Translations under genes and position numbers: made by a program
Shown here: piece by piece, positions 1 to 29,722 of the stretch
Position numbering within the stretch: the first letter of the stretch is position 1
Layout: every line of letters begins with the position of its first letter
NCBI GenBank assembly: GCA_003345555.1
Contig: PRDJ01000001.1
Span: 1-32,000, forward strand
Reading direction: 5' to 3'
DNA length: 32,000 bases
DNA from: Candidatus Thorarchaeota archaeon
Lineage (GTDB): Archaea; Asgardarchaeota; Thorarchaeia; Thorarchaeales; Thorarchaeaceae
The notes under the pieces: generated by a model
The model's input: the letters and a program-made list of their open reading frames with translations, nothing else
The model's database searches: none
What the model was told of the DNA's origin: nothing

Positions 1-510
1 TACTACGTTCAGGTACGGACTATCGACTATGTGACAATCCTGCCTTCAATTCCGGTGGCACTCCTCATCATTGCAGTTCTGTACATCAACGAGTTTCCTG
101 ACTATCGAGCAGATGAGGCTACAGGCAAGAGAACTCTGGTTGTGCGCTTAGGTCGCAAGAATGCGGCTCGAGGATATGCGGTGATCATGACTGCAGTCTA
201 TCTCACAATCTTGTTCGGGGTCATCATGAACGTAATGCCAGACGATACTTTAGTTGCACTGACAACACTACCTCTAGGCAGTCTCGCAGTGCGACGTGCC
301 GTGATTTCATATGAGAAATCGTTTGAACTCATTCCTGCAAACGCCTCGACAGTGTTGACGCATCTGCTGACCGGAATGTTCCTCACACTTGGATACGTGC
401 TAGCAGGACTTGCAGTATCCTTTCTAGAGACTCTGGTGCTCGGCTTCTTTATTCTGGCGGTAACACTGTTCCTGAGCCTTAGGATACACAGGAGACCTCC
501 GCCTGCTTAG
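1..510 (+). CDS. menA: UbiA-family prenyltransferase, MenA-like (1,4-dihydroxy-2-naphthoate polyprenyltransferase); 5'-truncated by the window edge
   Basis: Frame 1 is open from base 1 (YYVQVRTIDY...). It contains the second Asp-rich motif NEFPDYRADEATGKRTLVVRLG (MenA consensus NxxxDxxxDxxxGKxTLxVRLG) and several hydrophobic helices. TAG at 508-510. Confidence 0.8.
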   Translation, partial: YYVQVRTIDYVTILPSIPVALLIIAVLYINEFPDYRADEATGKRTLVVRLGRKNAARGYAVIMTAVYLTILFGVIMNVMPDDTLVALTTLPLGSLAVRRAVISYEKSFELIPANASTVLTHLLTGMFLTLGYVLAGLAVSFLETLVLGFFILAVTLFLSLRIHRRPPPA

Positions 511-1740
511 CTATTGCGGATAGGCTTCCTTGAGGCCATCCCAAGAGAATCCTAAAGCCTCGGCAACTAGTACAGCCAGATCCTTCGACTTCTTGCCTGA
601 CCCGGCTTGGGGAAGTTGGTCCTGCATGAAGTCAACACACGACGGACACGCAGAAATCACCTGCTCGGCACTGGTTTGCTCTATGTCCTTTAGTTTGAGC
701 TGGTTTATCTTCAGGGCGAACTCGTTGTCGATAGCTCGGAGAACGCCGCCCGAGCCGCAGCAGAAGCAGTTGTTCTTGTTATGAGGGAGCTCCTCGAACG
801 ATACTCCCGGCAGATTCTCTATGACTTTCCTCGGTTCCTCAAAGAATCCAGAGTTCCTTCCTGCATCACATCCATCATGGAATGTGATTGAGGTCTCCGT
901 GTGACGACCAAGATTGTTCAGTTTGCCGCTATCAAACAGGTCTGCCAGATATCTTGCGCCGTACTCGATTTCGAACGGATGCTCGATGTTCAGAAGCTCA
1001 TGGTACTCATGTGCCCACATCTTGTAGCAACCAGGACAGTTGGTGACTATTCGTTCCACGCCAAGAGCTTTGTACTTCTCTATGTTGTGAGCCGCGAGTT
1101 TCCGAGCCGTGTCAAAATCCCCCGTCATGAGCATCGGGGCCCCGCAGCACCACTCATCCTCCCCGAGTATGGTATAGTCCTGCTGGACCTTGTCCATAAT
1201 CAGAGTCGTGGCTATTGTAGCTTGGATTGGCACTGCCTTGAACGACGAAGCACATCCGAAGAAGAATGCAGTCTTTGCCTTTCGGCCAATCTTGCTTCGC
1301 ACCAGCTCTTCGTCAGGATGCCAGTACGACCACCCGTCGATTCGATCTGACTGAGATTGACCCTGAATGTTGTTAGTCTTCAACAAAGTGTCCCTTGCAG
1401 CTTCGAGGTTCTTTGGCCACATACCCCTTTTCCTGAACTCGGCACGCATCAGCTTGTAGAGCTTGACAAAAGGGATGTCGACTTGACACACTTCCTCACA
1501 TCCGCCGCACAAAGTGCATCCGAATATGGCGTCTCGGAGACCTTCAAGTCCCTCAGAGGGTTCGATGCGGCCCTGGACTAGTGCCCGGGCAAGAAGCATC
1601 TTTCCCTTGCCAGAGTAGCTATCAAGTCGTTTGACCTTGTATGTGGGGCAGGATCCGTGGCCGACTTGACAGAAACTGCACTGAGCGCAGGTGAAGGGCA
1701 TGTCTTGAAGGCCGTGTTTCTCAAGCAGTGGGAAGCGCAT
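511..1740 (-). CDS. Fe-S oxidoreductase with 2x[4Fe-4S] plus two CCG domains (HdrD/GlcF/GlpC family)
   Basis: N-terminal CAQCSFC-x6-CP and CTLCGGCEEVC motifs. Two complete CCG motifs, C-x34-CC-x35-CPGC and C-x35-CC-x36-CPSC, match the CX31-39CCX35/36CXXC consensus. Its stop abuts the menA stop exactly. Confidence 0.9.
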   Translation of the reverse strand: MRFPLLEKHGLQDMPFTCAQCSFCQVGHGSCPTYKVKRLDSYSGKGKMLLARALVQGRIEPSEGLEGLRDAIFGCTLCGGCEEVCQVDIPFVKLYKLMRAEFRKRGMWPKNLEAARDTLLKTNNIQGQSQSDRIDGWSYWHPDEELVRSKIGRKAKTAFFFGCASSFKAVPIQATIATTLIMDKVQQDYTILGEDEWCCGAPMLMTGDFDTARKLAAHNIEKYKALGVERIVTNCPGCYKMWAHEYHELLNIEHPFEIEYGARYLADLFDSGKLNNLGRHTETSITFHDGCDAGRNSGFFEEPRKVIENLPGVSFEELPHNKNNCFCCGSGGVLRAIDNEFALKINQLKLKDIEQTSAEQVISACPSCVDFMQDQLPQAGSGKKSKDLAVLVAEALGFSWDGLKEAYPQ

Positions 1741-4871: not shown

Positions 4872-6827
4872 ATGGAGAAGGTTCTGATGGTGTTAAAGAG
4901 CGAGCAAGTATCGAAACTCGCTGAGGTTTTCGGAGACCGACTCGTCACAGCCAAACATGAGATGATTATTCATTCCCAGGATGTCGGTAGTCTGCCAAAA
5001 CAAGTCGGCTGGCTCATGAACACTAAGCCGGATGCAATCATACAGCCCCAATCTCCGGAGGACATTCAGTTTCTTTATGAGTTTGCTCGGGCTCAGAAGG
5101 TCCCGCTCATCCCCAGGGGTGCTGGAACCTCGGGCTACGGGGGAGCGATACCACGTAACGGCGGCATCGTTGTTGACATGCGCAGGATGGATCGAGTACT
5201 CAATATCGACAAGGAGAACCTTACAGTTACTGTTGAGCCGGGCATATCATGGCTCAATCTGCAGTTCGAACTGAACCGTCAAGGTCTGGATTTGAGATGC
5301 TATCCCTCTTCTGGCATATCGGCCACAGTGGGCGGCTGGGTTGCTCAGGGTGGAGATGGTATCGGATCACTGAAATACGGCAAAATCAATGATAATGTGG
5401 TTGAACTTGAGGTTGTTCTGCCAGAGGGTAGAATTGGCAATACCAAGGACATTGAGCTCTTTTGCGACACAGAAGGTATACTTGGAATCATAACGAAAGT
5501 CACCCTGAAGGTCAGGCAACTCACTCCAATGCGTTCCGTTGTAGTCAGCTTTCCCGAGAATTACTTGATGACATTCGCAATCGAGAAGATTCTGGCTGAG
5601 GGACCATTGCCTTTCACAATAAGATTCGAGGAGAGCAAGTACACGGACCTGAAGAAGAGAGTGTGGGAGTCAGACAAACCTTTCCCATTCCCAGTGAGTC
5701 ACTGTGTTCTCCTTGTTTCTTATGAAGGAACCGAGGACGAGATTCGGGAAGGCTTCGAAGTCGTGAGGCGGGTGGCCGAGGAAATGAAGGGCGCCGTCTA
5801 CGATGATTGGGTTGCAGAGCACGAATGGGAAGACAGGTTCTACCCAATGAAGATCAAGAAGATGGGCCCGAGTCTTGTTGTCGGACAGGCATTCGCCCCA
5901 ATCGAGAGCCTCGAAGGCATTCTGGACGATTTCCAGTTCGAACAGGCCTCAGCGAGAGCTGGCATTGATGGCTATGTGACTTCAAAAACTGGGGTCACGA
6001 TGATGGGTTACTTCCTAGAGGATGAGCGTCGCCACTTCTTCCTGCTCTCTTGGTCCCAAGCCTTCGTAGTATTCAAAATTGCTCAACGTCATGGGGGGCA
6101 CCCTCATTCGACGGGGATTTGGTTTGCCAATTATGCGCCCGCCTATTTCGGCACACGACGCTTGGCTAGAATCCGAGCGGCGAAGGTGGAGTTCGACCCC
6201 GAGGAGATATCTAACCCCGGCAAGATATTCGCGTACTGGCTTCCTTTCATACTCAGGGTTGGCAAGTACTTCATGTGGCTCGGCTTCGATCTTTTTAGAA
6301 ACGGGTTCGGCCGAATTGCGCCTATTATTCTTAGGTGGCTGCAGAATCTCCCGCCCATCAAGTGGATTCTTAGATGGGGCCGGGCATACAGTCCTTGGCC
6401 GGTGCAATATGGCCTCGGTTGCTGTATGGTTGAAGGTGCGGCCGCGGTCGCATCTCGCTGGGATCTTGAGAGATTCGGAATGCTGCCTTTGTTTGGCCCG
6501 CGACAGTGCGATGTGCTCTGGGTCTCTGGTTCACTGACCAAGAAGATGGCACCGCGTCTCCGCCGCATATACGAACAGATGCCTGATCCGAAATTTGTCA
6601 TATCGTTCGGTCAGTGTGCTGCGAGTGGCGGCGTGTTCTGGGATGGATACTCCTTGGTGACGCCGCCTGACAAGGTGATCCCGGTAGATGTCTACTTGCC
6701 GGGCTGTCCTCCCAAGCCGTCGGACTTCGTGAGGGCACACCTGATTCTTGAGAACAAGATTCGAGCGGGAACAACCTATTGGCAACGGAGATACGAGAAT
6801 CAGGATGCCATGGGCTTCGTGAAGTAG
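4872..6827 (+). CDS. nuoB: Fusion protein: VAO/GlcD-family FAD-linked oxidoreductase (aa about 10-452), amphipathic linker, then NuoB/FpoB-type [4Fe-4S] subunit (aa about 505-640)
   Basis: FAD domain motifs: PRGAGTSGYGG, ATVGGWVAQGG..G.GSLKYG, EGILGIITKVTLK, and C-terminal FDPEEISNPGK (6195). NuoB motifs: GLGCCMVE (6417-6431), PRQCDVLWVSGSLTKKMAP.LRRIYEQMPDPKFVISFGQCAASGG, VDVYLPGCPP. One uninterrupted frame. Confidence 0.92.
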   Translation: MEKVLMVLKSEQVSKLAEVFGDRLVTAKHEMIIHSQDVGSLPKQVGWLMNTKPDAIIQPQSPEDIQFLYEFARAQKVPLIPRGAGTSGYGGAIPRNGGIVVDMRRMDRVLNIDKENLTVTVEPGISWLNLQFELNRQGLDLRCYPSSGISATVGGWVAQGGDGIGSLKYGKINDNVVELEVVLPEGRIGNTKDIELFCDTEGILGIITKVTLKVRQLTPMRSVVVSFPENYLMTFAIEKILAEGPLPFTIRFEESKYTDLKKRVWESDKPFPFPVSHCVLLVSYEGTEDEIREGFEVVRRVAEEMKGAVYDDWVAEHEWEDRFYPMKIKKMGPSLVVGQAFAPIESLEGILDDFQFEQASARAGIDGYVTSKTGVTMMGYFLEDERRHFFLLSWSQAFVVFKIAQRHGGHPHSTGIWFANYAPAYFGTRRLARIRAAKVEFDPEEISNPGKIFAYWLPFILRVGKYFMWLGFDLFRNGFGRIAPIILRWLQNLPPIKWILRWGRAYSPWPVQYGLGCCMVEGAAAVASRWDLERFGMLPLFGPRQCDVLWVSGSLTKKMAPRLRRIYEQMPDPKFVISFGQCAASGGVFWDGYSLVTPPDKVIPVDVYLPGCPPKPSDFVRAHLILENKIRAGTTYWQRRYENQDAMGFVK

Positions 6828-6925: not shown

Positions 6926-7393
6926 ATGGGGACCCTCAGGGAAGATAGCGACTTCTATTGTTTGCTTTGGCTTGGAGTAGCCTTGCTGAGCGCATACTAC
7001 TTCAACATCGGATACTTGGGGCTCACAATACCACTGTATCTCAGCACGGTACAGGTTTACTTGCTTCCGTTGGTAGGTTGCCCCTTAATCCTAGTTGTAG
7101 TCTTCGTTTCCTACCTGAGCCCATCCCGAGGCAGGTACAAACCCGTGGCATTCGCTCTGGCGATTGTTGTGTCTCTGTACTTCTACATCGTTGTGAGTTC
7201 ATTACCGCCGGTTGCAGGAATCACTTCCGATACATTGTTTCTATTATCGTGGGGAATTGGCAGCGCTCTTCTTGTGGCATCTGGTTTCTCGATAATGCCG
7301 GGTCGGTCGGAAACAACTAGCCCTGGTATTCTGGATGTTGGATCTCTCAAGTACGGCATTCCGACCGAAGAGGAGCACGAGGAAGCAGCCTAG
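6926..7393 (+). CDS. Hypothetical membrane protein (about 4 TM, 155 aa)
   Basis: Four hydrophobic segments and an acidic tail. ATG 6926 chosen over the longer ORF, which overlaps the preceding gene. Confidence 0.65.
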   Translation: MGTLREDSDFYCLLWLGVALLSAYYFNIGYLGLTIPLYLSTVQVYLLPLVGCPLILVVVFVSYLSPSRGRYKPVAFALAIVVSLYFYIVVSSLPPVAGITSDTLFLLSWGIGSALLVASGFSIMPGRSETTSPGILDVGSLKYGIPTEEEHEEAA

Positions 7394-7812
7394 CCGCGTC
7401 TGATAGTTTCAGCACTTGCTTTCGGAATGGCCAAGTCTCGCTTGGCTCTGGAAAGCTCACGGAGCCAGCTTAATGATGCCACCGTGAGAAGAACACCGAA
7501 TGCGGCCCAAAGAAACAGAATCAGACCGCTGTAAGGTTGTGGGAATAGGACGAGATTCAAGTACCCTTCGATTCCACCAAACACAGCGGACAGGAGAGTC
7601 AATGCTATTCGTGCCATCCTAGTTCTTGAAAATGATATCGCCAATGTTGATGCTACGAAGAGAGCATAGTCAACGAGTACGAGACCATAGAGAAGGTCTA
7701 TGACGCCTGCGTCTGCAACCCACCAAACATACAACGCTATCATTGCAAGGCCGACTGCGAAGACAGTATAGTAGACCAGGATACTCTTCGATTTTGACAC
7801 CAACTCTATCAC
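7390..7812 (-). CDS. Hypothetical membrane protein (about 4 TM, 140 aa)
   Basis: GTG start, four hydrophobic segments, 4-nt convergent overlap with its neighbour. Confidence 0.65.
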   Translation of the reverse strand: MIELVSKSKSILVYYTVFAVGLAMIALYVWWVADAGVIDLLYGLVLVDYALFVASTLAISFSRTRMARIALTLLSAVFGGIEGYLNLVLFPQPYSGLILFLWAAFGVLLTVASLSWLRELSRAKRDLAIPKASAETIRRG

Positions 7813-8604: not shown

Positions 8605-9048
8605 ATGAGGCTCTTCATTGACTTCAATTATGTCTTCGTTTGGGCCCTTCTTGCGGTAGCCCTAGTCGTCATCATGCTTGCGGCATCATGGATACTCCGC
8701 CCTCACATTCTACAGAACTCAGACAAGACTTCCACGTACGAATGCGGCGAAGAGCCGATAGGTCCCGCAAGAGTCTCCTATCCTTACAGCTACTTCCTCT
8801 ACACCATTCTCTTTGTCATCGTTGATGTCATGGGCGCGTTCCTGTGGTTGCTCTCAGTGTCCCAGTTCAGAACTACAGAGGCAGCTGTCTGGCAGATGCT
8901 GTTCTTTGTACTGCTAATCACAGCCGGAATTGGTTTTGCCCTGCGAATGTTCCCGCAGACGATTCTCAGCGGGAAAGAAACCCTCAAGCTCTATAGAGAG
9001 GGAAAGGCGAGACGCGATTCTCAGAAGACGGAGGCGGCCCAGCAATGA
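8605..9048 (+). CDS. nuoA: Complex I-like subunit A (NuoA/FpoA)
   Basis: Three TM segments with the loop motif KTSTYECGEEP and YFLYTILFVIVDV. Confidence 0.9.
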   Translation: MRLFIDFNYVFVWALLAVALVVIMLAASWILRPHILQNSDKTSTYECGEEPIGPARVSYPYSYFLYTILFVIVDVMGAFLWLLSVSQFRTTEAAVWQMLFFVLLITAGIGFALRMFPQTILSGKETLKLYREGKARRDSQKTEAAQQ

Positions 9049-10018: not shown

Positions 10019-10544
10019 GCCAGATATCTATCTCACAACGGTGTCACCCTCGGCGGTTGCTCAGGCAGTGAGAAGCAAATGTCCAGATGTCACGCAGAAG
10101 AGTATGCAGGGGAACCGTCTAGAGCTGATTGTTCCGCCCTCAAGAATCCGGGATGTCGTGGGCCTGCTTAACGAACTGATTTCTGACGCTCTTCCAGAGT
10201 CCGTCTTTGGCATCGACCTTCAGAATGACCGATACGAACTGATCTATGTGTTTTGGTCCCACCTCAACAGAATGCTGTGCCAGCTTCGTGTGAGTCTGGA
10301 AGGTACCGTACCCGAGGTCGACTCTGTCTGTGACATATTCCCGGGATTGGAGTGGCACGAACGCGAGACCCATGAGATGTTCGGCATAGGTTTCAAGGGC
10401 CATCCCGACCTGAGATTGCTTTTGCTCCCGGAGGAGCTGAGCGGCAAGTACCCGCTTCGAAAGAGATTCAAAACTGACAGAAGCCGATTGAGCGAAACTG
10501 GATTGCCCGAAGCTAGGCCAGGTTCAAAGGAGGCCGAAACGTAG
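10011..10544 (+). CDS. nuoC: Complex I-like subunit C (NuoC/FpoC)
   Basis: WHERETHEMFGIGFKGHPDLRLLLLPEE...YPLRK motif. ATG 10011 overlaps the nuoK stop by 8 nt. Confidence 0.92.
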   Translation: MSEPDIYLTTVSPSAVAQAVRSKCPDVTQKSMQGNRLELIVPPSRIRDVVGLLNELISDALPESVFGIDLQNDRYELIYVFWSHLNRMLCQLRVSLEGTVPEVDSVCDIFPGLEWHERETHEMFGIGFKGHPDLRLLLLPEELSGKYPLRKRFKTDRSRLSETGLPEARPGSKEAET

Positions 10545-11680
10545 TGTGCCCTGAGATTGTTGATGAGGCAGCTCAGGTCTGGTTCGGACCCCAGCACGTA
10601 TCGGCTCATGGGTGGGCTACGAAGCTCACAATCGTCGGGGACTACATTGTTGAATGCGATCCGAATGCAGGTTACTTTCACCGCTCGGCGGAGAAGTGCC
10701 TTGAGTTCAGGAACTTCCAGCAGGGCGCACTGATTATGGAACGGCTCTGTATGCTTGAGGCTTTCCTTGCAGAGTATCCTTACGTCAAGGCAGTTGAACA
10801 AATCGCCCAGCTTGATGTGCCAGAGCGAGCAAGGGTGATGAGAACTATAATGATGGAGGCGAGCAGGATTCACAGCCTCCAATTCTGGTGGGGTCAATTC
10901 GGGGCCGAGCTGGGCCTCTTTGCAATGACGCTCTGGCCTTGGGTCGATCGTGAGTATTTCCTCGATGCATTTGAAGAGCTGACCGGTTCTCGACATGCAG
11001 TCTCCTACAGCGCACCTGGTGGCGTCAAGTACGACTTCAACGAGAAGTCTATCAAGATGCTGGAGCGGGCTCTGGATAGGCTTGAGGATCGGCTTCCAAA
11101 GTTTCGTGACATGATTCTGAGAAGCCCCACTTTCAAGTTGCGAACCAAGAAGATTGGACTGTTTGACGCAGCACAGGGTTTGAAGTGGGGGTTGAGTGGG
11201 CCGAACATAAAGGCGTGTGGCATCCCGATGGATTTGCGAAAGGACGACCCCGACCCGAATCTCGCGTACGAGATGTGTGACTGGGAAGTGCCAGTGACGA
11301 CCAATGAGGATCATCCGGGTCAATGCGATGCCTATGACAGGATGTCGCAACGGTTCAAGGAAATCGAGACCTCAGCCAGTATCATCCGTCAACTGCTGCC
11401 TCAAGTGCCTGAAGGTCCTATCATAGACCCCAAAGCCCGCGCGAAGGCAAACAGGCTGCCCGAGGGAGAGGCATACGGTCGTGTCGAGGGCACAAGGGGA
11501 GTAACAACGCTCTTTCTCAAGACTGCTGACAAGGCTCAGACTCCTTACAGAGCAAAGATACGCGGCCCATGTTTCGCCTCGTACTACTCGTTGAAGCATT
11601 TGGTTCCTGGATCGACATTCGCTGACTTCGTCGTAATATTCGGCAGCCTCGACCCATACCCGGGGTGGTGGGATCGCTGA
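10544..11680 (+). CDS. nuoD: Complex I-like subunit D (NuoD/FpoD/MbsL family; not a [NiFe] hydrogenase large subunit)
   Basis: FGPQHVSAHG, GYFHRSAEK, RVEGTRG and YRAKIRGPCF motifs, ending GSLDPYPGWWDR. Both NiFe CxxC motifs are absent. Confidence 0.9.
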   Translation: MCPEIVDEAAQVWFGPQHVSAHGWATKLTIVGDYIVECDPNAGYFHRSAEKCLEFRNFQQGALIMERLCMLEAFLAEYPYVKAVEQIAQLDVPERARVMRTIMMEASRIHSLQFWWGQFGAELGLFAMTLWPWVDREYFLDAFEELTGSRHAVSYSAPGGVKYDFNEKSIKMLERALDRLEDRLPKFRDMILRSPTFKLRTKKIGLFDAAQGLKWGLSGPNIKACGIPMDLRKDDPDPNLAYEMCDWEVPVTTNEDHPGQCDAYDRMSQRFKEIETSASIIRQLLPQVPEGPIIDPKARAKANRLPEGEAYGRVEGTRGVTTLFLKTADKAQTPYRAKIRGPCFASYYSLKHLVPGSTFADFVVIFGSLDPYPGWWDR

Positions 11681-12822
11681 TGGGGGTCGGCACGATTCTT
11701 CAGATAGACATCGTGGGCTGGCTGAGCGGACTGCCCTCCTGGATTTACCTCGTAATCAGCGGGCTGTTCAGCCTTGTCTGGGCCTTCTTCAACTGGATAT
11801 GGAGCATTGTCGTCTGGTTCTGGGCACTGGCTATTTCCCAAATATGGTGGCTGTTCAAGGCCATAGTATTCCCGGGGTTAGTCTTCATACTGTTCTCCAT
11901 CATCTTCTCCGTGTGGTTCACGAGAAAGGTATGGGGCCGAGTGCAAGCAAGACGGGGTCCGTTTCACCTCGGTAAGTACGGGGGCCTCCAGGTATTCGCA
12001 GACGCGATAAAGCTAATTGGAAAAGAAATCGTGATACCTGACAAAGCCAAGCGATGGATGTACAGAATACTTCCATCTCTGCTACTTATCGCAGTTCTCG
12101 TTCCATTTGCGTTTATTCCATGGAGCAACGAATGGTATATCGCGGATCTCTCAGTGAGCCTAATAGTAACGTTTGCATTTCTTACAGTTGTTCCTGTGGT
12201 ATCTCTGCTTTCGGGCTGGATTAGCGGATCGAAGTACACACTCATTGGTGGCTTCAGGGCAGCTAACAATCAATTCGCTGCCGAGATACCCTTGATCATT
12301 TCCTCTGTTGGTCCTGCGATGCTTGCCGGCTCGCTAAGCATCATGGGCATTTCACAAGCTCAGTCAAGTCTTTGGTACTTTCTTCTGCTTCCTGTAAACT
12401 GCGTGACATTCATGGTGAGTGCTACCGTGATAACTGCGCTCGTGCCTTTCGATGCCCCGGTCGCAGACTCGGAGATTCTGTTTGGCTGGAGGACCGAGTT
12501 CAGCGGCATATACTTCACCATGACCTATTTTGCAGAGTTCGCTAAGCAGTTGCTGTTCTCCGGTCTCATAGTAGCTCTGTTCTTCGGAGGTTCATACGGC
12601 TTTGCATTCATGCCTCCTGTCCTGAACTTCATCTTCAAGTTCCTAATCGTTCTCTTCTTCATGATCTTGGTGACATCATCATTCTACAGGATGAGACAGG
12701 ATCAGGTCACTCACTTCTGCTGGAAGTATCTTCTGCCGTTGTCTCTGCTCAACGTTGTCATTGCGATGTTTGCGATTGTGTATGTCCCGGGATTGGCACA
12801 GCTGCTGGGAATCGGAGGTTGA
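11680..12822 (+). CDS. nuoH: Complex I-like subunit H (NuoH/FpoH) with a Trp-rich N-terminal extension
   Basis: RVQARRGP...GGLQVFADAIKLIGKE, SKYTLIGGFR and PFD....SEI..G..TEFSG motifs; TGATG overlap with nuoD. Confidence 0.9.
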   Translation: MGVGTILQIDIVGWLSGLPSWIYLVISGLFSLVWAFFNWIWSIVVWFWALAISQIWWLFKAIVFPGLVFILFSIIFSVWFTRKVWGRVQARRGPFHLGKYGGLQVFADAIKLIGKEIVIPDKAKRWMYRILPSLLLIAVLVPFAFIPWSNEWYIADLSVSLIVTFAFLTVVPVVSLLSGWISGSKYTLIGGFRAANNQFAAEIPLIISSVGPAMLAGSLSIMGISQAQSSLWYFLLLPVNCVTFMVSATVITALVPFDAPVADSEILFGWRTEFSGIYFTMTYFAEFAKQLLFSGLIVALFFGGSYGFAFMPPVLNFIFKFLIVLFFMILVTSSFYRMRQDQVTHFCWKYLLPLSLLNVVIAMFAIVYVPGLAQLLGIGG

Positions 12823-12829
12823 TGAAAGG

Positions 12830-13261
12830 ATGGGTTTCTTTAGCACGCTCGGTGACATATTCAGGGTACTGCGTCATACATTCCGTCAGACGATGACTCG
12901 ACCTTTCACCTACTTCTATCCATTTGAAGACCGGTACTATCCAGACACCACGAGGGGCAGACATATTCACATCAGGAAGAACTGCACGGCGTGCGCACAG
13001 TGTGTGAAAGCTTGTCCTACGATCGCGATAAGAATCGACAAGCAGGACCGCATGTACGAGAAGGATGCCGCCCTGCACTTTGATTATACACGCTGCATAT
13101 TCTGCGGTCTCTGTGTTCAGGCATGCAAGTTCAATGCACTCTTCCACACCAAAATTGTTGATCTCAGTGAAGAAACGAGAGAAGACCTGCAATACGGTCC
13201 TGACAGAATGGGCACACTCGAAAGGAAACCCCTCAAGTGGCGCGGGAGGACATTCAGGTAA
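12830..13261 (+). CDS. nuoI: Complex I-like subunit I (NuoI/FpoI), 2x[4Fe-4S]
   Basis: CTACAQCVKACP and CIFCGLCVQAC motifs; TRGRH and FDYTRC; GGAGGT RBS. Confidence 0.93.
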   Translation: MGFFSTLGDIFRVLRHTFRQTMTRPFTYFYPFEDRYYPDTTRGRHIHIRKNCTACAQCVKACPTIAIRIDKQDRMYEKDAALHFDYTRCIFCGLCVQACKFNALFHTKIVDLSEETREDLQYGPDRMGTLERKPLKWRGRTFR

Positions 13262-14775
13262 TGCAGGTCGTACAACTCCCATTCATGACGATTTCGCTTG
13301 CCATGTTGTTCTTTGGTGCGTTGGCTATCTATTTGCTGAAGAGCAGGCTGGGTGCGGGGGCAGGTAAAGCAGCAGCGGCTATATCATTCGCTTCCCTTGT
13401 GTTGATGATTCCGCCATTCTTCCGAGTTGTGGTGGAAGGCGGGCCTGCGATGGAGTCCGCAACTTGGTCCCAAGTGTTCGGCAGAGTCGGTCTCTACCTT
13501 GATGGCATCGCGTTTCCGATTACATTCGCAGTTGTGGTTCTTGGATTCCTGTCGGTGGTCTATGCCATCGGGTACACTCGAGAGATTCCGAACCAGCCAT
13601 CATTCTTTGCGAACCAGCTATTTTTCATCATGGGGATGCAATGGGTGACATTGGCCACGAATGTCATAGAGTTCTTCATAGCATGGGAGATCATGCTTGT
13701 CCCCACGTACTTCCTGATCCTGTTCTGGGGATTGCCCGAGACCAAGAAGCGCACTGCATTGAAGTTCTGGTTATACACACAGTCCGGCGCATTATGTATC
13801 TTCGTGGGATTCGGTCTACTGTACTATTTCGTAGGCTCATTCGAGCTCTCGGTCATCCAATCACTCCTGCCCACGTACGTGGGCTCGATTGACACTCTGA
13901 AGCTCATCTTTGTCTTGCTCGCCGCAGGGTTCCTCGTCAAGATGGCTGTCTTTCCTATTCACTGGTGGCTGCCCCCAGTCCATGCTGAGGCCCCAACACC
14001 AATCTCCGTTCTACTCTCAGGCGCAATGATTGAGACCGGTGCTTATGCCTTGGTCAGGTTTGGAACAATCATACTAGGAATTGCCGCTTCATCTCTTTCT
14101 GTATGGATTGCTGCAATTGGAGTAGTCACTATGTTCTACGGAGGCCTGATGGCACTGGCCCAGTCAGATATCAAGAGGTTACTTGCGTACTCATCTGTCT
14201 CCCAAATGGGCTATGTTCTCTTTGCGCTTGGCACATTCGCAACTTATGGTGTGTCGGGTGGCCTGTTTCATCTTATCAATCATGCATTCTCAAAGGGCCT
14301 CCTATTCATGACAGCAGGGGTCGTCATTCACGAGACGAAGGTGAGAGACATTGCTCAGCTGGGCGGGTTGTCGAACAAGATGCCAATCACAGCATTCGCC
14401 GCTGCTGTGGGGGCGCTGAGCATCGCAGGGAGTCCTCCGTTGTCGGGCTTCGCCAGCGAATGGATGATGTTCCTCGGAGGATTCCAAGCGGCACTGCCCG
14501 GTGCAGGTGGTTTGGCCCGACCCGAGTTCTTTGTTCTAGCCGTGCTTGGAGTATCAAGCACAATCATCAGCGCTGGGTATATGCTGAGATATCTGTGGAA
14601 AGTCTTCTTGGGACCGACACCGGAGAGCCTTGAGCACGTGAGAGAAGGACCTAGGTCAATGACCGTCCCCATGGTGACTCTGTCGTGCCTTATAGTCCTG
14701 TTCGGAATATTCCCGGGGCTTGCGCTTTCTGTGATAAGCCCGGCGGTGAACGCTATAGCTAACATAATTCCTTGA
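13261..14775 (+). CDS. Additional (fourth) proton-translocating antiporter-like subunit, HyfB/MrpD/NuoM-like
   Basis: AWEIMLVP, VKMAVFPIHWWLPPVHAEAPTPIS, DIKRLLAYSSVSQMGY, HLINHAFSKGLLF and PPLSGFASEW motifs. About 504 aa. TAATG coupling to nuoI. Confidence 0.9.
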   Translation: MQVVQLPFMTISLAMLFFGALAIYLLKSRLGAGAGKAAAAISFASLVLMIPPFFRVVVEGGPAMESATWSQVFGRVGLYLDGIAFPITFAVVVLGFLSVVYAIGYTREIPNQPSFFANQLFFIMGMQWVTLATNVIEFFIAWEIMLVPTYFLILFWGLPETKKRTALKFWLYTQSGALCIFVGFGLLYYFVGSFELSVIQSLLPTYVGSIDTLKLIFVLLAAGFLVKMAVFPIHWWLPPVHAEAPTPISVLLSGAMIETGAYALVRFGTIILGIAASSLSVWIAAIGVVTMFYGGLMALAQSDIKRLLAYSSVSQMGYVLFALGTFATYGVSGGLFHLINHAFSKGLLFMTAGVVIHETKVRDIAQLGGLSNKMPITAFAAAVGALSIAGSPPLSGFASEWMMFLGGFQAALPGAGGLARPEFFVLAVLGVSSTIISAGYMLRYLWKVFLGPTPESLEHVREGPRSMTVPMVTLSCLIVLFGIFPGLALSVISPAVNAIANIIP

Positions 14776-14785
14776 GGTGCGCCAG

Positions 14786-17002
14786 ATGCTGTTCGGACTA
14801 CCCTACTATCTGATTCTCGTCATTCCGCTGGCAGGTTCACTGGTTGTTCCTCTCGCTGGCCGCTTCAGTGAAAAGCTGAGAGACTGGACGCCCGCTTTAC
14901 TCATGGGCATTACGATGATTTTGTGCTGGTCTCTCTTCCCAGACATCGGTAGTCCTCAGGGGCCCACGAGTTGGCCTTGGATTGAGGCGTTGGGCCTTCG
15001 TTTCGAAGTCCTGCTGGATCCTCTGTCCGTCATCATGGCAGTTCTTTCGAGTACGCTATGCTTCCTGATCTACGTTTACAGCACGGAATACATGGCTCAC
15101 GAAGGAGATCGTGACAGGTTCTTCTTCCTAATGCTTGCTTTCGGGGGCGGCATGCTGACCCTTGTGCTCAGCAACAACCTTCTGATTGCATTCATCGGGT
15201 GGGAGATAATGGGCTTCTGTTCCTATGGTCTCATCGGTTTCTGGAACGATAGGAAGAACCCACCCGAGACCGACCCGACTGGTATTGAATCAAAGAATCC
15301 ACTGCTCCGCTTCGAAACAGAAGGTCAGTACAACACTCACTGCGGAACAAAGGCATTCGTCGTAACGAGAGTCGGGGACGCCTTCATGCTCGGAGGAATT
15401 CTCCTTCTGTTCATGTTCACCGGCACCTTCTCATTTACAGAGATGGCTGCCGATGCTCAAAGCTGGTGGCAGATTCTCTCTTCTGTTGGACTGCTATTCC
15501 CGACCTTTCTTCTCATATTCGCAGGTGCCATTGGAAAGTCAGGACAAGCTCCTCTCGACGTCTGGCTTCCCGAAGCAATGGCCGGACCAACGTCGGTCTC
15601 AGCACTGATTCACGCAGCAACCATGGTCAAGGCTGGGATATACATCACGGCTCGTTTTCTGGTCACCATGGCAAGCGCTGCAGACTCCGGAGTCGTTCCC
15701 GAGATTCTGCCTCCGTCTTTCGACTCCGCTGCGTCGTTCTTTACAGTTGTTGCCATAGTCGGGGGCGTTACAGCATTCATGACGGCTACCATGGGAATGG
15801 TTTCCAATGAGCTGAAGCAGGTTCTGGCGTTCTCGACTTTGAGTCAGCTCGGATACATGATGCTAGCGATGGGCACAGGGGGGCTACTCATCAGCTATCA
15901 GGAAGCATACATGAGCGGGATTCTGCACATCATAAGTCACGGAGCTTTCAAGGCTCTTCTCTTTCTTGCGGCGGGCGGAGTCATTCACGTTGTTCACACG
16001 AAGTACCTCAGCAAGATGGGCGGCCTCAAGCAGTACATGCCCAAAACATTCATTGTAATGTGGATTGGTGTGCTTGCTCTTTCAGGCATTCCGCCGTTCT
16101 CAGGTTTCTGGTCGAAGGATTCGATAATCGAGTACGCATATGACCTCGCGCTCCACAATGATGTTGGTATCTTCCTCTTCATTCTGGCTATTCTTGCAGC
16201 AGCTTGTACAATCTTCTACAGCATAAGGCTCATGGGGATGGCTTTCTATGGGCCTTCACGCGGCGTCGCATCAACCGAGGATATGAGTGCCTCACTAGGT
16301 CACGAGTCTCACGGGCACTCGGAGCAAGAACCGCATACCGAGCATGAGGAGCCGCATGACCCCGGCCGGGCAATGATGTGCCCTCTATACATTCTCGCTG
16401 CTTTCACAATCGTAGCCTTTGCTGTCTTTCCGTTTGTTGAGGCCGTGCTGTTCAGCGAAGGTCCTATGACAGTATCAGTGTGGACAAGCGTTCTCACAGA
16501 GATGGTGCTTGTGAAACTGACAATGCCGGGATTGGTGCCTTTCGTGTTCACATTGGGGGCATTGGCCTTGGGAGGAATTCCGGCCTATATTCTTTACATT
16601 GGACGGTCGGACCGGCCGAATACGGCGATACCCGATGCCGGGATCAGGAAGCGGCTATACGGTTTTCTCAAGCATCGTTGGTACATCAATGAATTCTACT
16701 ATTGGATTGTCGGTGGCGTTCTCAGATTCACGAGTTCTTGGAAGTCGAAGATAGATGACCGTATCATAGACGGCATTGATTTCGGCTCGGCTCGTACGGC
16801 AATCTCGGCGTCCAAGCGAATAAGATGGTTTGACGATCACATAGTTGATGGATTTGCAGAGGAGATATCGACGGCAAGCGTCGCTGCGTCAGAGTCGAGC
16901 GAGGTAATCGAGACCGGAAGAGTCAACGACTATGTGGCTGTTCTCATGTTCGGTGTCGGAGTTCTGGTTATTCTTGCTTTGATTTCCTTGGGGGTGATCT
17001 AG
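14786..17002 (+). CDS. nuoL: Complex I-like subunit L (NuoL/FpoL) with an extended transverse helix
   Basis: GWEIMGFCSYGLIGFW, KAFVVTRVGD, GKSGQAPLDVWLPEAMAGPTSVSALIHAATMV, FSTLSQLGY, HGAFKALLF and GFWSKD motifs; His-rich loop; C-terminal HL helix plus TM16. ATG 14786 follows a GAGGTG RBS (GTG 14777 is an alternative). Confidence 0.95.
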   Translation: MLFGLPYYLILVIPLAGSLVVPLAGRFSEKLRDWTPALLMGITMILCWSLFPDIGSPQGPTSWPWIEALGLRFEVLLDPLSVIMAVLSSTLCFLIYVYSTEYMAHEGDRDRFFFLMLAFGGGMLTLVLSNNLLIAFIGWEIMGFCSYGLIGFWNDRKNPPETDPTGIESKNPLLRFETEGQYNTHCGTKAFVVTRVGDAFMLGGILLLFMFTGTFSFTEMAADAQSWWQILSSVGLLFPTFLLIFAGAIGKSGQAPLDVWLPEAMAGPTSVSALIHAATMVKAGIYITARFLVTMASAADSGVVPEILPPSFDSAASFFTVVAIVGGVTAFMTATMGMVSNELKQVLAFSTLSQLGYMMLAMGTGGLLISYQEAYMSGILHIISHGAFKALLFLAAGGVIHVVHTKYLSKMGGLKQYMPKTFIVMWIGVLALSGIPPFSGFWSKDSIIEYAYDLALHNDVGIFLFILAILAAACTIFYSIRLMGMAFYGPSRGVASTEDMSASLGHESHGHSEQEPHTEHEEPHDPGRAMMCPLYILAAFTIVAFAVFPFVEAVLFSEGPMTVSVWTSVLTEMVLVKLTMPGLVPFVFTLGALALGGIPAYILYIGRSDRPNTAIPDAGIRKRLYGFLKHRWYINEFYYWIVGGVLRFTSSWKSKIDDRIIDGIDFGSARTAISASKRIRWFDDHIVDGFAEEISTASVAASESSEVIETGRVNDYVAVLMFGVGVLVILALISLGVI
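16751..16906 (+). repeat. Degenerate 26-codon tandem duplication inside the NuoL amphipathic helix
   Basis: IDDRIIDG at 16751 and FDDHIVDG at 16829 are exactly 78 nt apart; the two units share 7/26 identities plus I/V and I/F conservative pairs. Confidence 0.75.
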
Positions 17003-18520
17003 GTGCAGATTCTATTTGCTCAGCAAATCATCGACATGCTTCCCCTCGGCATACTTCCATTCATGCTTATACTCCCTCTCATCGCCTCAGTTATCGCCTA
17101 TGCTGTTCGCGGACGAGCCGCAAGGATTCTCACGCTTACTGTAACAGTTACTGAGCTACTCCTTTCATTTGTTCTTGCAATGGCAATCAATCCCGCCATA
17201 ATTAGTGGCGACCCAAACGCAGGTATGAAGTATCTCTGGAACTTCGTCATGGGACAGATTGTATCAGGCGGAGGCTCTACAGAACTCCAGATTGCACTCG
17301 GTGTTGACGGCATCTCGGTTGCCATGATCGTGCTGTCCAATTTCGTAGTGATGATAGCCACAATCAGCTCGAATCACATACACAAGTCCGAGGGCCTGTA
17401 CTATGCTCTAATGCTCCTTTTGCAGGTGGGGCTTATCGGAGTATTCATGTCCCTTGACCTCATTGGATTCTTCATCTTCTGGGAGCTAGTCCTGATTCCA
17501 ATGTTCTTCATCATCGGGCGATGGGGTGAGGAAGGTTGCCAGCATGCTGCTATCAAGTTCTTCATCTACACTCATCTTGGCTCTGCGGTGATGCTCGTCG
17601 CCTTCTTCGTTCTGTACTTCGTAGCCGTCCCACATACCTTTGACATGATAGCGCTCCGGAGTATGGGGCTGCCTCCAATGGTTCAGCTTGGATTTGCACT
17701 TGCAGTGTTCATGGGCGCGGGTGTGAAGCTGCCTGTCTGGCCGCTGCACAACTGGCTGCCGTGGGCTCATGTAAAAGCTCCGACACCTGGCTCTGTGATT
17801 CTTGCTGGCATACTCCTGAAGATGGGCGGTTACGGATTCATTCGGCTTGGGGTTTGGATGGTTCCAGACGCCTTTGCGAGATTGAGTATTCCACTCGCCG
17901 TGCTTGCGGTGTTCACGTGTATCTATGCGGCGTTCACAGCGATGGCTCAGACCGACCTAAAGAGTATGGTCGCCTACACTTCGATAAATCACATGGCTTG
18001 GGTTTTGCTCGGCGTTGCCATAGGGACAGCCACAGCACTACAGGGAGCAGTCTACATGATGGTCTCTCATGGAGTTATCATCTCCGTCATGTTCATTGTT
18101 GCAGGACAGCTCAAGTACTCCGCAGGTTCCAGAGAAATCCCCCAAGTCAAAGGATTGATGGTGCAAGCTCCGCGATTGGCGTCAGTGTTCATCTTTGCAT
18201 CATTTGCCACGTTCGGCCTTCCGGGTCTGAGTGGGTTCATCGCAGAGGCACTGATTCTTTTTGGATCGGTGAAGGTTTACGTATGGACTGCGTTAATCAC
18301 TCTGGGAGTGTTTCTGACAGTAGGCTACATTCTGTGGACATTGAACAGAATCGTATTCAGTGATGCTAACCCTGAGAAGCCGGTGACGGAGGCACCTTGG
18401 AGCGACCTTATTGCGCCCTTGATTACACTGATACCGGTAGTTATCTTGGGAGTGTGGCCTGACCTCCTGCTCGGGTTAGTGTCGCCGGTAGTTTCTTTCA
18501 TTGTTGGGGGTGTGCCATAG
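17003..18520 (+). CDS. nuoM: Complex I-like subunit M (NuoM/FpoM)
   Basis: FWELVLIPMFFIIGRWG, KFFIYT, VKLPVWPLHNWLPWAHVKAP, LAGILLKMG, YTSINHM, SHG and GFIAE motifs. Confidence 0.95.
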   Translation: MQILFAQQIIDMLPLGILPFMLILPLIASVIAYAVRGRAARILTLTVTVTELLLSFVLAMAINPAIISGDPNAGMKYLWNFVMGQIVSGGGSTELQIALGVDGISVAMIVLSNFVVMIATISSNHIHKSEGLYYALMLLLQVGLIGVFMSLDLIGFFIFWELVLIPMFFIIGRWGEEGCQHAAIKFFIYTHLGSAVMLVAFFVLYFVAVPHTFDMIALRSMGLPPMVQLGFALAVFMGAGVKLPVWPLHNWLPWAHVKAPTPGSVILAGILLKMGGYGFIRLGVWMVPDAFARLSIPLAVLAVFTCIYAAFTAMAQTDLKSMVAYTSINHMAWVLLGVAIGTATALQGAVYMMVSHGVIISVMFIVAGQLKYSAGSREIPQVKGLMVQAPRLASVFIFASFATFGLPGLSGFIAEALILFGSVKVYVWTALITLGVFLTVGYILWTLNRIVFSDANPEKPVTEAPWSDLIAPLITLIPVVILGVWPDLLLGLVSPVVSFIVGGVP

Positions 18521-20019
18521 TGTTTCAGCTTTTCACACCGATTGTCGATCTCATACGCGCCATTCTGAGTCCTATCACGCAGCAATTGCTTCAGTTCATC
18601 CCCTCAGATTGGCTTGGGTCAATGCCGGCTCTTACTCTTGTCGGGTTTGCAGTGATTGCCTTGGTCGTGGGCATTCGATGGAACCCGCTTCCTGTCAGCT
18701 TCATTGGAGTGCTGGTGGTTACAATCGAAATGATTGTTCTTGACCCGGTGTCCTCTTTTGGCGGCCTGTTCGTTAGAGATGCGTTTTCTGACTTCTTCAT
18801 TTACATCATTCTGATAGTCGGCTTCCTTGTCTTGATGTCATCCACCCTCCACAGCGGAGACCAGGGTCCTTACAACTTCCTACTGCTCATGTCGTTTGCA
18901 GGAGCTATCTTGGTAGTGACGGCTACCGATCTCATTGCATTGTTTCTTGCGTGGGAACTGATGTCCACCCCCACCTACGTTCTTACTGCGCTGAGTCCGA
19001 ATCGTGGAGCTGTCGATGGAGCAACGAAGTACTTCGTTATGGGCCTGATGGCCACGACACTCATGATATTCGGAATCGCTCTTGTTTATGGTGTCACAGG
19101 CCAAACTAGTCTATCAGTGCTGTCGTCGACTGTCGCGACAATCTGGAGTTCCGGCCCTGGACTATCCCCAGCGGCATACACTCTGATGCTCGCCATGATT
19201 CTCTTCGTGATATCATTCGGATTCAAAGTCGGCATCTTTCCCGGTTGGATGTGGGTACCTGATACCTATTCGACTGCTGACGGCAGTGTTACGTCGTATC
19301 TAGCAGGTGCGACTAAGAAAGCGGGTGTCAGCGCACTTGTCCGAATCTTGATGGTTGCGTTCATTGTTGCAAGGCTCAGCTGGGCTCCCCTAATAGTCGG
19401 AGTATCGATTCTAACTATGGTAATTGGAAATGTGCTCGCATTGGCGCAACGTAAAATCATGCGGATGCTGGCATACTCGAGTATTGCGATGATGGGCTAC
19501 TTGATGATAGGGCTCGCTGCAGGCACGGAACTCGGTGTAGCTGCGGCTTTCTTCCAAGCTTTTGTTCACGCTCTGATGAAGACAGGAGCTTTCATCTTGG
19601 TTTGGACAATCTCAGTGCGTTTGGCCCGGGATGTCACATACGACGACCTAGCGGGATTGAGTCAGAGGGCTCCGCTTGCGTCAGCGATGTTCGCAGTACT
19701 GATGCTTGCTCTTGCAGGGATGCCACTGACTGCTGGCTTTTGGTCCAAACTTATACTGTTTCAGAGTGCTGTTGAGGTCGGTATGTGGTGGCTTGCTCTG
19801 ATTGGGCTCCTGAATTCGGTGTTCTCATTGGGTTACTACCTAAGAGTGCTGAAGTACTGCTACATGATCGAACCGAAGGATGGATCTCCGCTGAAGCTTG
19901 CTAGCGTTCCGGTCATGGCTGTTGTTCTATGCGTTGTTGGTGTTATCGCATTCTTTGTCTTTCCGGGTGCCATCCTCGACTACGCGATTGGGGCTGCCGC
20001 AGGAATCGTGGTACCCTAG
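18520..20019 (+). CDS. nuoN: Complex I-like subunit N (NuoN/FpoN)
   Basis: AWELMSTPTYVL, ATKYFVMG, FKVGIFP.W.WVPDTY, RMLAYSSIA and GMPLTAGFWSK motifs; TAGTG overlap with nuoM. Confidence 0.93.
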   Translation: MFQLFTPIVDLIRAILSPITQQLLQFIPSDWLGSMPALTLVGFAVIALVVGIRWNPLPVSFIGVLVVTIEMIVLDPVSSFGGLFVRDAFSDFFIYIILIVGFLVLMSSTLHSGDQGPYNFLLLMSFAGAILVVTATDLIALFLAWELMSTPTYVLTALSPNRGAVDGATKYFVMGLMATTLMIFGIALVYGVTGQTSLSVLSSTVATIWSSGPGLSPAAYTLMLAMILFVISFGFKVGIFPGWMWVPDTYSTADGSVTSYLAGATKKAGVSALVRILMVAFIVARLSWAPLIVGVSILTMVIGNVLALAQRKIMRMLAYSSIAMMGYLMIGLAAGTELGVAAAFFQAFVHALMKTGAFILVWTISVRLARDVTYDDLAGLSQRAPLASAMFAVLMLALAGMPLTAGFWSKLILFQSAVEVGMWWLALIGLLNSVFSLGYYLRVLKYCYMIEPKDGSPLKLASVPVMAVVLCVVGVIAFFVFPGAILDYAIGAAAGIVVP

Positions 20020-29721: not shown

Positions 29722-29722
29722 C

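Follow-up and report, generated by a model that had tools for sequence, protein, structure and literature searches.

Layout of the locus

The stretch of DNA analysed in this study (the window, 32,000 nucleotides) is the first 32 kb of contig C1 (PRDJ01000001.1) of a Candidatus Thorarchaeota genome, which has a size of 2.28 Mb in 82 contigs and is 93.5% complete. The closest relatives of the proteins of the window are annotated as Candidatus Thorarchaeota of the Asgard lineage. The window encodes a complex-I-type pump whose NuoB subunit is the C-terminal part of a flavin-binding fusion protein, and an iron-sulfur protein with two CCG domains (the CCG protein) is encoded on the opposite strand upstream of the fusion gene. 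The pump genes follow the order nuoA-J-K-C-D-H-I-X-L-M-N (8605-20019), most of their junctions overlap or abut by 1-4 nt, and three small open reading frames (ORFs) lie between the fusion gene and nuoA. The features are as follows.

1..510 (+): UbiA prenyltransferase, MenA-like, C-terminal 169 aa, cut by the contig start (Pfam UbiA, E 4e-11)
511..1740 (-): CCG protein, HdrD/GlcF/TfrB-like Fe-S protein of 409 aa, N-terminal 2x[4Fe-4S] ferredoxin domain and two CCG domains (Pfam: Fer4_8, 2x CCG)
4872..6827 (+): fusion ORF, uninterrupted, 651 aa, FAD_binding_4 + FAD-oxidase_C + Oxidored_q6 (Pfam)
4872..6236 (+): FAD domain of the fusion, residues 1-455, D-2-hydroxyacid-dehydrogenase-like VAO/PCMH fold (Pfam, AlphaFold2, Foldseek)
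6237..6386 (+): linker of the fusion, residues 456-505, three conserved amphipathic helices (AlphaFold2 model)
6387..6827 (+): NuoB domain of the fusion, residues 506-651, ligands of cluster N2 (alignment, NCBIfam)
6926..7393 (+): orf204, small membrane protein with 3-4 transmembrane helices, no known family (hydropathy, conserved position)
7390..7812 (-): orf140, small membrane protein with 3-4 transmembrane helices, divergent from nuoA, no known family (hydropathy, conserved position)
8605..9048 (+): NuoA (Pfam Oxidored_q4)
9045..9701 (+): NuoJ (Pfam Oxidored_q3)
9698..10018 (+): NuoK (Pfam Oxidored_q2)
9978..10544 (+): NuoC (Pfam Complex1_30kDa)
10544..11680 (+): NuoD, altered substrate pocket, without NiFe site (Pfam, PDB comparison, alignment)
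11665..12822 (+): NuoH (Pfam NADHdh; alignment to E. coli NuoH and NdhA)
12755..13261 (+): NuoI, 2x[4Fe-4S] (Pfam Fer4)
13237..14775 (+): subunit X, fourth antiporter-like subunit, NuoM/MrpA-N/MbhH type (PF00361)
14777..17002 (+): NuoL, 741 aa, Proton_antipo_N + PF00361, lengthened lateral helix (Pfam, NCBIfam)
17003..18520 (+): NuoM (PF00361; NDH_I_M 431 bits)
18520..20019 (+): NuoN (PF00361; NDH_I_N family 303 bits vs. cut-off 333)

The start of orf204 is possibly at 6779, where it would overlap the stop of the fusion gene. The true start of NuoI is probably near 12830, and its orthologue at locus L013 of a complete Thorarchaeota genome (CP070761.1) has 143 aa.

Fusion protein, pump core and CCG protein

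The complex is an 11-subunit complex-I-type core without NuoEFG, to which a fourth antiporter-like subunit is added. A preliminary description of this DNA had listed all 11 core subunits with NuoB present only as a fusion to a FAD protein, and this was confirmed by the Pfam assignments of the genes A to N and by a search of the whole genome. There were four Oxidored_q6 matches in the source genome, including the fusion. The other three genes each adjoin a NiFeSe_Hases large subunit together with MvhD, an HdrA-like protein or a NAD/FAD gamma subunit, and this marks them as small subunits of group-3 (cytosolic) hydrogenases, which ruled out a second NuoB elsewhere. The fusion domain is the only NuoB of this 93.5%-complete genome. 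The reported lack of NuoEF and of a NiFe site was also borne out: NuoF (PF01512) was absent from the 93%-complete source genome, no NuoE, NuoF or NuoG was found in the locus, and NuoD is without the NiFe CxxC pairs, with one Cys left of the N-terminal motif and a C-terminus that reads DPYPGWWDR.

The statement that FpoF is missing holds for the locus, where none was found. It is common for FpoF genes to lie away from the operon that they belong to. For the genome the matter is left unsettled by one FrhB/FpoF-family gene (C36:60264-61446), which adjoins ribA (GTP cyclohydrolase II) and not a hydrogenase, and whose 393-aa product joins a ferredoxin part of the FrhG kind to an FrhB/FpoF-family domain. 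This protein scored below the cut-offs of both the FpoF model (117 vs. 475 bits) and the FrhB subfamily (210 vs. 269 bits). PF00361 and PF00346 were confined to the nuo operon in the source genome, no group-4 hydrogenase was found there, and no Rnf, NarI/HdrE/DsrM, NrfD or cytochrome bd genes were found among four genomes of the genus. The nuo-type complex is the sole recognisable redox-driven ion pump of the source genome. An SdhA-SdhB-fumarase operon without an adjoining membrane anchor or SdhE/F gene lies at C2:766-4697; it may be a fumarate reductase linked to a carrier or a thiol, and might use one of the many CCG proteins.

The fusion protein was modelled by AlphaFold2 with a predicted local distance difference test (pLDDT) score of 87 for the whole model (predicted template-modelling score 0.74). 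Foldseek matched the fold of its FAD domain to mouse D-lactate dehydrogenase (LDHD, TM-score 0.81-0.85), LctD (0.78) and the alkyl-dihydroxyacetone phosphate synthase AGPS (0.65-0.68), and the FAD loop RGAGTSGYGG is conserved. The HxGDGNxH and EHGxG metal/substrate motifs (His/His/Glu) are absent from the fusion, from unfused Thorarchaeota proteins and from the nearest FAD-FeS-CCG homologues. Because the unfused proteins and the nearest homologues lack the same motifs, the FAD domain appears from its sequence to be a distinct subfamily and not a decayed enzyme. Lactate and glycolate were considered as its substrate and are not supported, with the metal and substrate motifs of these dehydrogenases missing. 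The closest homologues outside Thorarchaeota are FAD-Fer4-CCG fusions of 900-1030 aa with the architecture of YdiJ.

The FAD domain is followed by a linker of 50 residues, which forms helices at 456-477, 479-491 and 494-505 in the AlphaFold2 model (pLDDT 65-74). The linker is highly conserved, rich in W, F, Y, R and K, and has a hydrophobic moment of 0.52-0.73; it probably lies at the membrane interface. The C-terminal 150 residues make up a NuoB domain that exceeds the NCBIfam NuoB cut-off, is about 50% identical to Nqo6, NdhK and PSST (E 9e-44 to Nqo6/NdhK) and carries all four N2 cysteines, a tandem CC plus two further ligands, as well as the GQC and PGCPP motifs. A related protein, P0243 (a 533-aa representative), has two tandem Oxidored_q6 stretches with 54% identity to the Thorarchaeota NuoB domain, and is either a duplicated NuoB or an assembly artefact.

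NuoD has an altered substrate pocket. Its identity is 72-95% among Thorarchaeota genomes, 48-51% to a small sister group and at most 38% to all other sequences found (non-Asgard), and among solved structures it matched MbsL of the Pyrococcus sulfane reductase best (5e-57), then Nqo4 (2e-51). The head group of the quinone is bound in canonical NuoD by the Tyr of the R-x-D-Y site (the ligands are Tyr87 and His38 in T. thermophilus numbering). This site reads RLCM in the source genome, with the His retained and a Glu as acidic partner. R-L/M-C-M/L was found in all 59 Thorarchaeota orthologues and R-x-S-M/L in all six sister sequences, as against D-Y in 53 of 53 others. NuoH keeps most of the conserved acidic residues with a few substitutions, and NuoI has both clusters retained, although it scored below the cut-off of the NCBIfam NuoI family.

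The fourth antiporter seen earlier in the operon is present. Subunit X passed the NDH_I_M cut-off (295 vs. 263.8 bits). Its best PDB matches, however, were MrpA (7e-55) and MbhH (3e-51), with NuoM (2e-48) after them, and by these scores neither MrpA-N nor MbhH looks more distant from it than NuoM. The Glu of transmembrane helix 5 (TM5) and the Lys of TM7 are kept in X, L, M and N; the TM12 residue is Lys in L and N and the NuoM-type Glu in X and M. Where NuoM has its central TM8 lysine, a Glu is found in subunit X (MIETG vs. LLKMG); for a putative proton channel, such a reversal of charge is unusual. The DDxIxDG motif of NuoL is repeated 26 residues further on, and about 30 extra residues follow its first copy compared with NdhF, which matches the 26-residue insertion reported for 2M complexes (PMC9040806). 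A His/Glu-rich loop with H-x-H and E-x-H repeats at NuoL residues ~500-525 (16270-16350) lies in a cytoplasmic or periplasmic insertion and is absent from NdhF and Nqo12 in the alignment.

The CCG protein contains two CxxCxxCxxxC(P) ferredoxin motifs and two CCG domains, and all its cluster cysteines are invariant in an alignment of 90 homologues. In the NCBIfam ranking, the C-terminal part of TfrB was best (1e-46), followed by LdhH, GlpC, GlcF and DsrK, and the JGI annotation is HdrD; about 56 Thorarchaeota orthologue clusters were found at 65-95% identity. The complex of fusion residues 1-470 with the CCG protein was predicted with an ipSAE of 0.87, and the best of three controls gave 0.00. 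The mark that this score passed is reached by 58 of 80 solved complexes and by 2 of 110 mismatched pairs. Three prediction runs shared at least 97% of contacts, with a partner pLDDT of at least 90. In the predicted interface, residues 13-88 of the CCG protein, which are its cluster-bearing ferredoxin domain, sit on the FAD-site loops 84-86 and 147-150.

The two genes also stay together. The CCG gene is the divergent neighbour of the fusion gene at ~180-360 bp in eight of the 11 other species genomes checked and on two more contigs, and the two adjoin divergently in two genomes of the same genus. The conserved divergent synteny and the predicted interface make the CCG protein a genuine partner candidate of the fusion. 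The distance of 3-5 kb that the preliminary description had recorded is peculiar to this genome: the 3.1-kb spacing is a genome-specific insertion (2044-4559) of an SBP_bac_5 solute-binding protein gene and a small 123-aa ORF with a single transmembrane helix. Since the pair is directly divergent in the two same-genus genomes and in most other species, we consider this insertion recent.

CCG-domain proteins number about 15 in the source genome and FAD_binding_4 proteins 10, and at least seven are encoded as adjacent pairs (contigs C6, C8, C20, C25, C35 and C73), which is a large expansion of FAD/CCG oxidoreductases. In the complete genome mentioned above, a flavoenzyme island lies upstream of the CCG-fusion pair (L013:1-9808); it consists of an amine-oxidase-like flavoprotein, two PNPOx/DUF7530 proteins and another two FAD_binding_4/CCG pairs.

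The UbiA fragment at the contig start is the only MenA-like copy in the source genome. For its full-length relative at locus L014, the 1,4-dihydroxy-2-naphthoate polyprenyltransferase models were best (E 5e-43; TIGR00751 97 bits vs. cut-off 102), and all MenA-type models stayed below their equivalog cut-offs for this orthologue. A role as the digeranylgeranylglyceryl phosphate synthase of archaeal lipids was ruled out, because the MenA-type models scored far better. The orthologues of GGR and polyprenyl synthase are located at the end of contig C78, and this contig probably adjoins contig C1. The name MenA in the heading of the preliminary description is to be read as MenA-like, since the UbiA protein does not reach the MenA equivalog level. 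A cluster of MenA-like, polyprenyl synthase, GGR and UbiE-like genes is linked to the CCG-FAD pair in several lineages. Judged by these genes, a prenylated carrier is likely, and menaquinone is not established.

Distribution, origin and relation to known systems

Homologues of the fusion form about 47 clusters at the 90% level, with 644-667 aa, the same three domains and 72-88% identity, and nearly all of them are from Thorarchaeota. In a search of 400 Asgard species genomes, the full-length fusion (74-82% identity) was found only in one Thorarchaeia family (f1), in its genera g1-g12, and the misses within these genera are mostly incomplete assemblies. Orthologues of subunit X (67-93% identity) are present in 54 of 86 family genomes, again only in g1-g12, and in none of the 15 genomes of g13-g16; the gene is usually on the same contig as the fusion, 7-8 kb away. 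Together, fusion and fourth pump occur in 12 of the 16 genera and in more than 50 species genomes. An assembly chimera or a singleton, which the preliminary description had named as a risk, is ruled out by an intact fusion ORF in more than 50 genomes, with the same distribution as the fourth pump. A seemingly natural split of the fusion in a same-genus genome (G333:C5:86000-105999) was discarded as evidence: the fusion and NuoD are each in two overlapping frames in the same assembly, which are probably indel errors and not gene fission.

The order and orientation of the divergent CCG gene, the fusion gene, orf204, the oppositely oriented orf140 and nuoA are kept in 11 further species genomes. 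orf204 lies directly 3' of the fusion gene in 13 other genomes or contigs (30-73% identity), with no Pfam match and no usable Protein Atlas match, and the position of orf140 is kept in at least 10 genomes (30-77% identity).

The remaining genera of the family show how the fusion may have arisen. A different complex, with three pumps and a free NuoB at 46% identity, is present in genera g15 and g16, and g13 and g14 have only Mbh/Mbx-like genes. In g14 (GCA_964648855.1, GCA_004524445.1), an unfused FAD protein of 498-499 aa with 56-58% identity is encoded directly after the CCG gene; this pair adjoins GGR, polyprenyl synthase and MenA-like genes, and no complex I is nearby. The unfused g14 proteins stop at PPLKW(I/L), exactly where the NuoB sequence of the fusion, LRWGRAYSPWP, begins. 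Because the unfused proteins end at the junction and the linker is amphipathic, conserved and rich in Trp, Phe, Tyr, Arg and Lys, the flavoprotein was most likely a monotopic membrane enzyme before NuoB was added to its tail.

On a metagenomic contig of the sister clade (L038), genes for a membrane-protein fragment and a Fer4+CCG protein of 483 aa are followed on the same strand by nuoJ, K, C, D, H, I, X, L, M and N. Its operon has four antiporter-like genes with the HdrD/DsrK-like CCG gene directly upstream; the membrane-protein fragment gave a weak match to the NarI/HdrE family (E 0.003), which is below the cut-off and suggestive only. Searching genome contigs with a sister-clade NuoD yielded no related loci. 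The closest free NuoB proteins (185 aa, 61-69% identity) are in other Asgard families, in one of which the gene follows nuoA with a FAD/CCG/FAD/CCG cluster 5 kb away. From these loci we concluded that the link of this complex-I clade to CCG or FAD-CCG genes predates the fusion.

Several known systems resemble parts of this locus. An Fpo-like complex working with HdrD has been proposed for Methanomassiliicoccales (PMC7374477). That system shares with the present one a complex-I homologue that has no donor module of its own and is presumed to be driven by ferredoxin, the lack of HdrE, and an anchor-less HdrD-type protein with 2x[4Fe-4S] and 2xCCG, which is there assumed to sit on the complex. 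In Thorarchaeota, by contrast, the association is hard-wired through the FAD domain on NuoB, there are four pump subunits instead of three, the locus adjoins prenyl-carrier genes, and neither methanogenesis nor a known heterodisulfide plays a part. The predicted contact of the HdrD-like protein is here with the flavoprotein. In Fpo + HdrED of Methanosarcina, a complex-I homologue reduces a prenylated carrier that is re-oxidised by an HdrD-containing enzyme, which is what we propose here, and the sister-clade contig has its CCG gene directly upstream of the operon, preceded by a possible HdrE/DsrM-like membrane gene. Unlike that system, the Thorarchaeota genus has no cytochrome b anchor and the locus no FpoF.

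Studies have also shown that 2M complex I occurs in Nitrospira and Manganitrophaceae with a 26-residue insertion in the NuoL lateral helix (PMC9040806, citing Chadwick 2018), and that clade 2 of 2M complex I is present in Thaumarchaeota without NuoEFG (PMC7300363, citing Chadwick 2018). The fourth antiporter-like subunit, the NuoL extension of about 26 residues and the frequent lack of NuoEFG are common to both; for 2M complexes, an extra proton per electron pair and possible reverse operation have been proposed. The Thorarchaeota complex differs in its extra subunit, which is as close to MrpA-N/MbhH as to NuoM, in a NuoD that is so distant from non-Asgard sequences and lacks the quinone Tyr, and in its gene order A-JK-CDHI-X-LMN, from which nuoB was removed. 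Four-pump complexes without NuoEFG, archaeal ones included, are therefore already known (PMC9040806, PMC7300363), and the four-pump design is not new in the way the preliminary description had suggested.

FAD-FeS-CCG dehydrogenases (E. coli YdiJ-type, GlcDEF, Dld-II/LdhH-type and GlpABC) likewise lead from a VAO/PCMH flavin through two [4Fe-4S] clusters to a quinone-reactive CCG part. In Thorarchaeota, however, FeS-CCG is a separate gene and the C-terminus of the flavoprotein carries NuoB, and unlike lactate, glycolate and D-2-hydroxyglutarate dehydrogenases, the FAD domain has no metal and substrate motifs. The membrane-bound sulfane reductase (MBS) of Pyrococcus (6u8y) provides the best solved NuoD match, and one Cys of the former NiFe motif is kept (RLC vs. 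RIC). In contrast to MBS, NuoB, NuoH, NuoA/J/K and NuoL with its full lateral helix are of the complex-I type, the N2 motif has its tandem Cys, and the His/acid pair of the quinone site is kept. The complex also differs from 14-subunit Nuo by the absent NADH-oxidising NuoE/F/G module, and from group 4 [NiFe] hydrogenases (MBH/Ech) by the two missing CxxC motifs in NuoD. Among the archaeal protein fusions that have been reported, only NuoB-C(-D) is listed and no FAD-NuoB (PMC11237513), and the FAD-NuoB fusion was not found in the searchable full-text literature, including papers on Asgard metabolism and archaeal fusions. The FAD-NuoB design is real, conserved and apparently undescribed.

The genes downstream of the operon are unrelated: an arrestin-N-like protein, DUF6144, GIY-YIG, an FGGY kinase, a LarA-family racemase and A-type ATPase subunits. 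The small protein directly 3' of nuoN (20169-20615) matched Arrestin_N and Spo0M weakly; Asgard archaea count arrestin-like domains among their eukaryote-like proteins. The FGGY sugar kinase (23414-24934, +) and a homologue of the LarA-family nickel-pincer 2-hydroxyacid (malate/lactate) racemase (24993-26420, -) lie 3-5 kb past the operon; a LarA-type racemase could feed D-2-hydroxyacids to VAO-type flavoenzymes. At 27461-32000, A/V-type ATPase genes (C/AC39 at 27461, I at 30108) are unusually broken up by opposite-strand genes.

Electron flow and competing readings

In its simplest reading, the core would be a reversible pump that is linked to ferredoxin and translocates about five protons. 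The transfer of two electrons from ferredoxin (~-450 mV) to a quinone at -74 mV yields ~72 kJ, which matches five H+ at 150 mV, and the earlier argument is sound by textbook standards: a couple at the level of ferredoxin is needed for five protons. We infer that the free FAD-CCG enzyme was an independent redox module reacting with a lipid carrier, and that the fusion pins it beside NuoB at the membrane interface. The N-terminus of NuoB lies at this interface, where the carrier portal of complex I is found (4HEA), and not near NuoI.

In the reading we favour, the exchange would be mediated by the carrier and run forward from ferredoxin to carrier, CCG, FAD and a soluble acceptor, with FAD-CCG tethered to the pump; we give it a probability of roughly 0.4. 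Reduced ferredoxin would dock on NuoI, and its electrons would pass through N6a/N6b to N2. N2 would then reduce a prenylated quinone-like lipid carrier in the modified NuoB/D/H pocket, with about five H+ moved per two electrons. The tethered FAD-CCG, sitting at the membrane interface beside the carrier portal, would exchange electrons between the carrier and a soluble two-electron substrate, along a route from the CCG site through 2x[4Fe-4S] to FAD. Pump and partner oxidoreductase would form one hard-wired unit, which in the forward direction would build a proton gradient for the A-type ATP synthase and at a high gradient could run backwards.

Several points weigh against this reading. The metal site of 2-hydroxyacid dehydrogenases is absent from the FAD domain and its closest homologues. 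The quinone-ligating Tyr is missing from NuoD, MenB, MenD and MqnA/D were not detected above cut-off in our searches, and neither menaquinone ring pathway was found; on these grounds a quinone-type carrier stays hypothetical. Menaquinone, which the preliminary description had proposed as the carrier, is therefore not supported. The predicted FAD-CCG contact may reflect family likeness rather than a specific pair, as paralogous pairs and fused FAD-FeS-CCG homologues exist. The position of FAD-CCG relative to N2, NuoI and the carrier portal is derived solely from where the NuoB N-terminus is known to lie. The co-occurrence of fusion and fourth pump comes from one clade and is a single evolutionary event. 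Finally, the FrhB/FpoF-family protein on C36 could be a donor or acceptor module of the pump, and the anchor-less SdhAB-fumarase operon could be an alternative acceptor or donor module.

Some of the same observations speak for a complex that works without any carrier, as a ferredoxin oxidoreductase for a disulfide or another soluble acceptor, akin to the proposal for Methanomassiliicoccales (PMC7374477). Here N2 would pass electrons directly to the HdrD-like protein held by the fusion, a disulfide would be reduced at the CCG clusters or a substrate at FAD, and the NuoD pocket would serve as a coupling site only. The HdrD architecture and JGI name of the CCG protein, the absent HdrE/NarI-type anchors, the clade-wide loss of the quinone Tyr, the undetected menaquinone ring genes, the Mvh/HdrA-type genes of the source genome and the published analogue all fit such a scheme. 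The conserved MenA-like, polyprenyl synthase, GGR and UbiE-like neighbours argue instead for a lipid carrier, and the role of the FAD domain is left unexplained. We regard this scheme as unlikely, at about half the weight of the carrier-mediated one.

The components of the carrier-mediated reading could also be driven the other way. FAD-CCG would then oxidise a mid-potential substrate and reduce the carrier, and the pump would spend the gradient on lifting electrons to ferredoxin. In syntrophs, CCG proteins (formerly DUF224) have been proposed to act as quinone reductases, which counts for this direction. The extra pump would raise the "gear ratio", and such operation has been suggested for 2M complexes (PMC9040806). 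Against it stands the fact that the complex is the only recognisable redox-driven ion pump in the source genome; reverse operation would therefore need a gradient from ATP hydrolysis, and five H+ per electron pair would be costly for a fermenter. We hold reverse operation to be as doubtful as the disulfide scheme, and the same low expectation applies to its possible purpose, the production of H2 or formate, or CO2 fixation, in a syntrophic lifestyle.

The preliminary description had treated the flavin as an electron input into the Fe-S chain. In that scheme, a soluble substrate would be oxidised at FAD and its electrons would pass via the CCG [4Fe-4S] clusters into N2 and on to the carrier, replacing NuoEFG/FpoF. 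The covalent attachment to the N2 subunit itself, the lack of NuoEFG, the predicted FAD-[4Fe-4S] contact as a plausible start of a wire and the strong purifying selection on the fusion are in its favour. By textbook energetics, though, a VAO-type flavin acting on 2-hydroxyacid-like substrates (~-190 mV) cannot pay for five H+. The N-terminus of NuoB is far from the usual entry at NuoI, both NuoI clusters are retained and would be redundant, and the free ancestor already had a membrane tail and carrier-synthesis neighbours without any complex I. Input through the flavin is thus not shown, and we rank it somewhat below the two preceding schemes.

NDUFA9 is a nucleotide-binding accessory subunit of mitochondrial complex I. 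A comparable non-catalytic role of the FAD domain in structure, assembly or regulation, with the CCG protein as a mere neighbour, would agree with the missing dehydrogenase substrate and metal motifs, but it is very improbable: the motifs are missing throughout the subfamily including fused FAD-FeS-CCG enzymes, which points to a different substrate and not to decay, the FAD loop is conserved with 74-88% identity across genera, the cluster cysteines of the partner are invariant, and the predicted interface is confident.

We also considered, as the most novel of the readings, that FAD-CCG might be an electron outlet (or inlet) dedicated to the pump and wired to N2, with no free quinone pool in between. 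We think this improbable. If it were true, the complex would represent a new class of enzymes in anaerobic respiration: it would act as a ferredoxin:soluble-acceptor oxidoreductase (2-oxoacid-like or disulfide), move about five protons, and have arisen in Asgard archaea when a free membrane flavoenzyme became fused to NuoB.

The diversity of complex-I homologues is ascribed to exchanges of donor modules at the NuoI side. In the complex described here, a complete second redox enzyme is instead bolted onto the N2 subunit at the membrane interface. The fusion is genetic evidence that GlcD/HdrD-type modules physically join complex-I-type pumps, which was merely assumed for Methanomassiliicoccales, and the modified NuoD pocket together with a candidate prenyl carrier points to unexplored coupling chemistry. 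The complex probably sets how the abundant Thorarchaeia of sediments conserve energy and dispose of, or raise, reducing power, which is a central question for the syntrophy and "reverse flow" ideas on the archaeal ancestor of eukaryotes.

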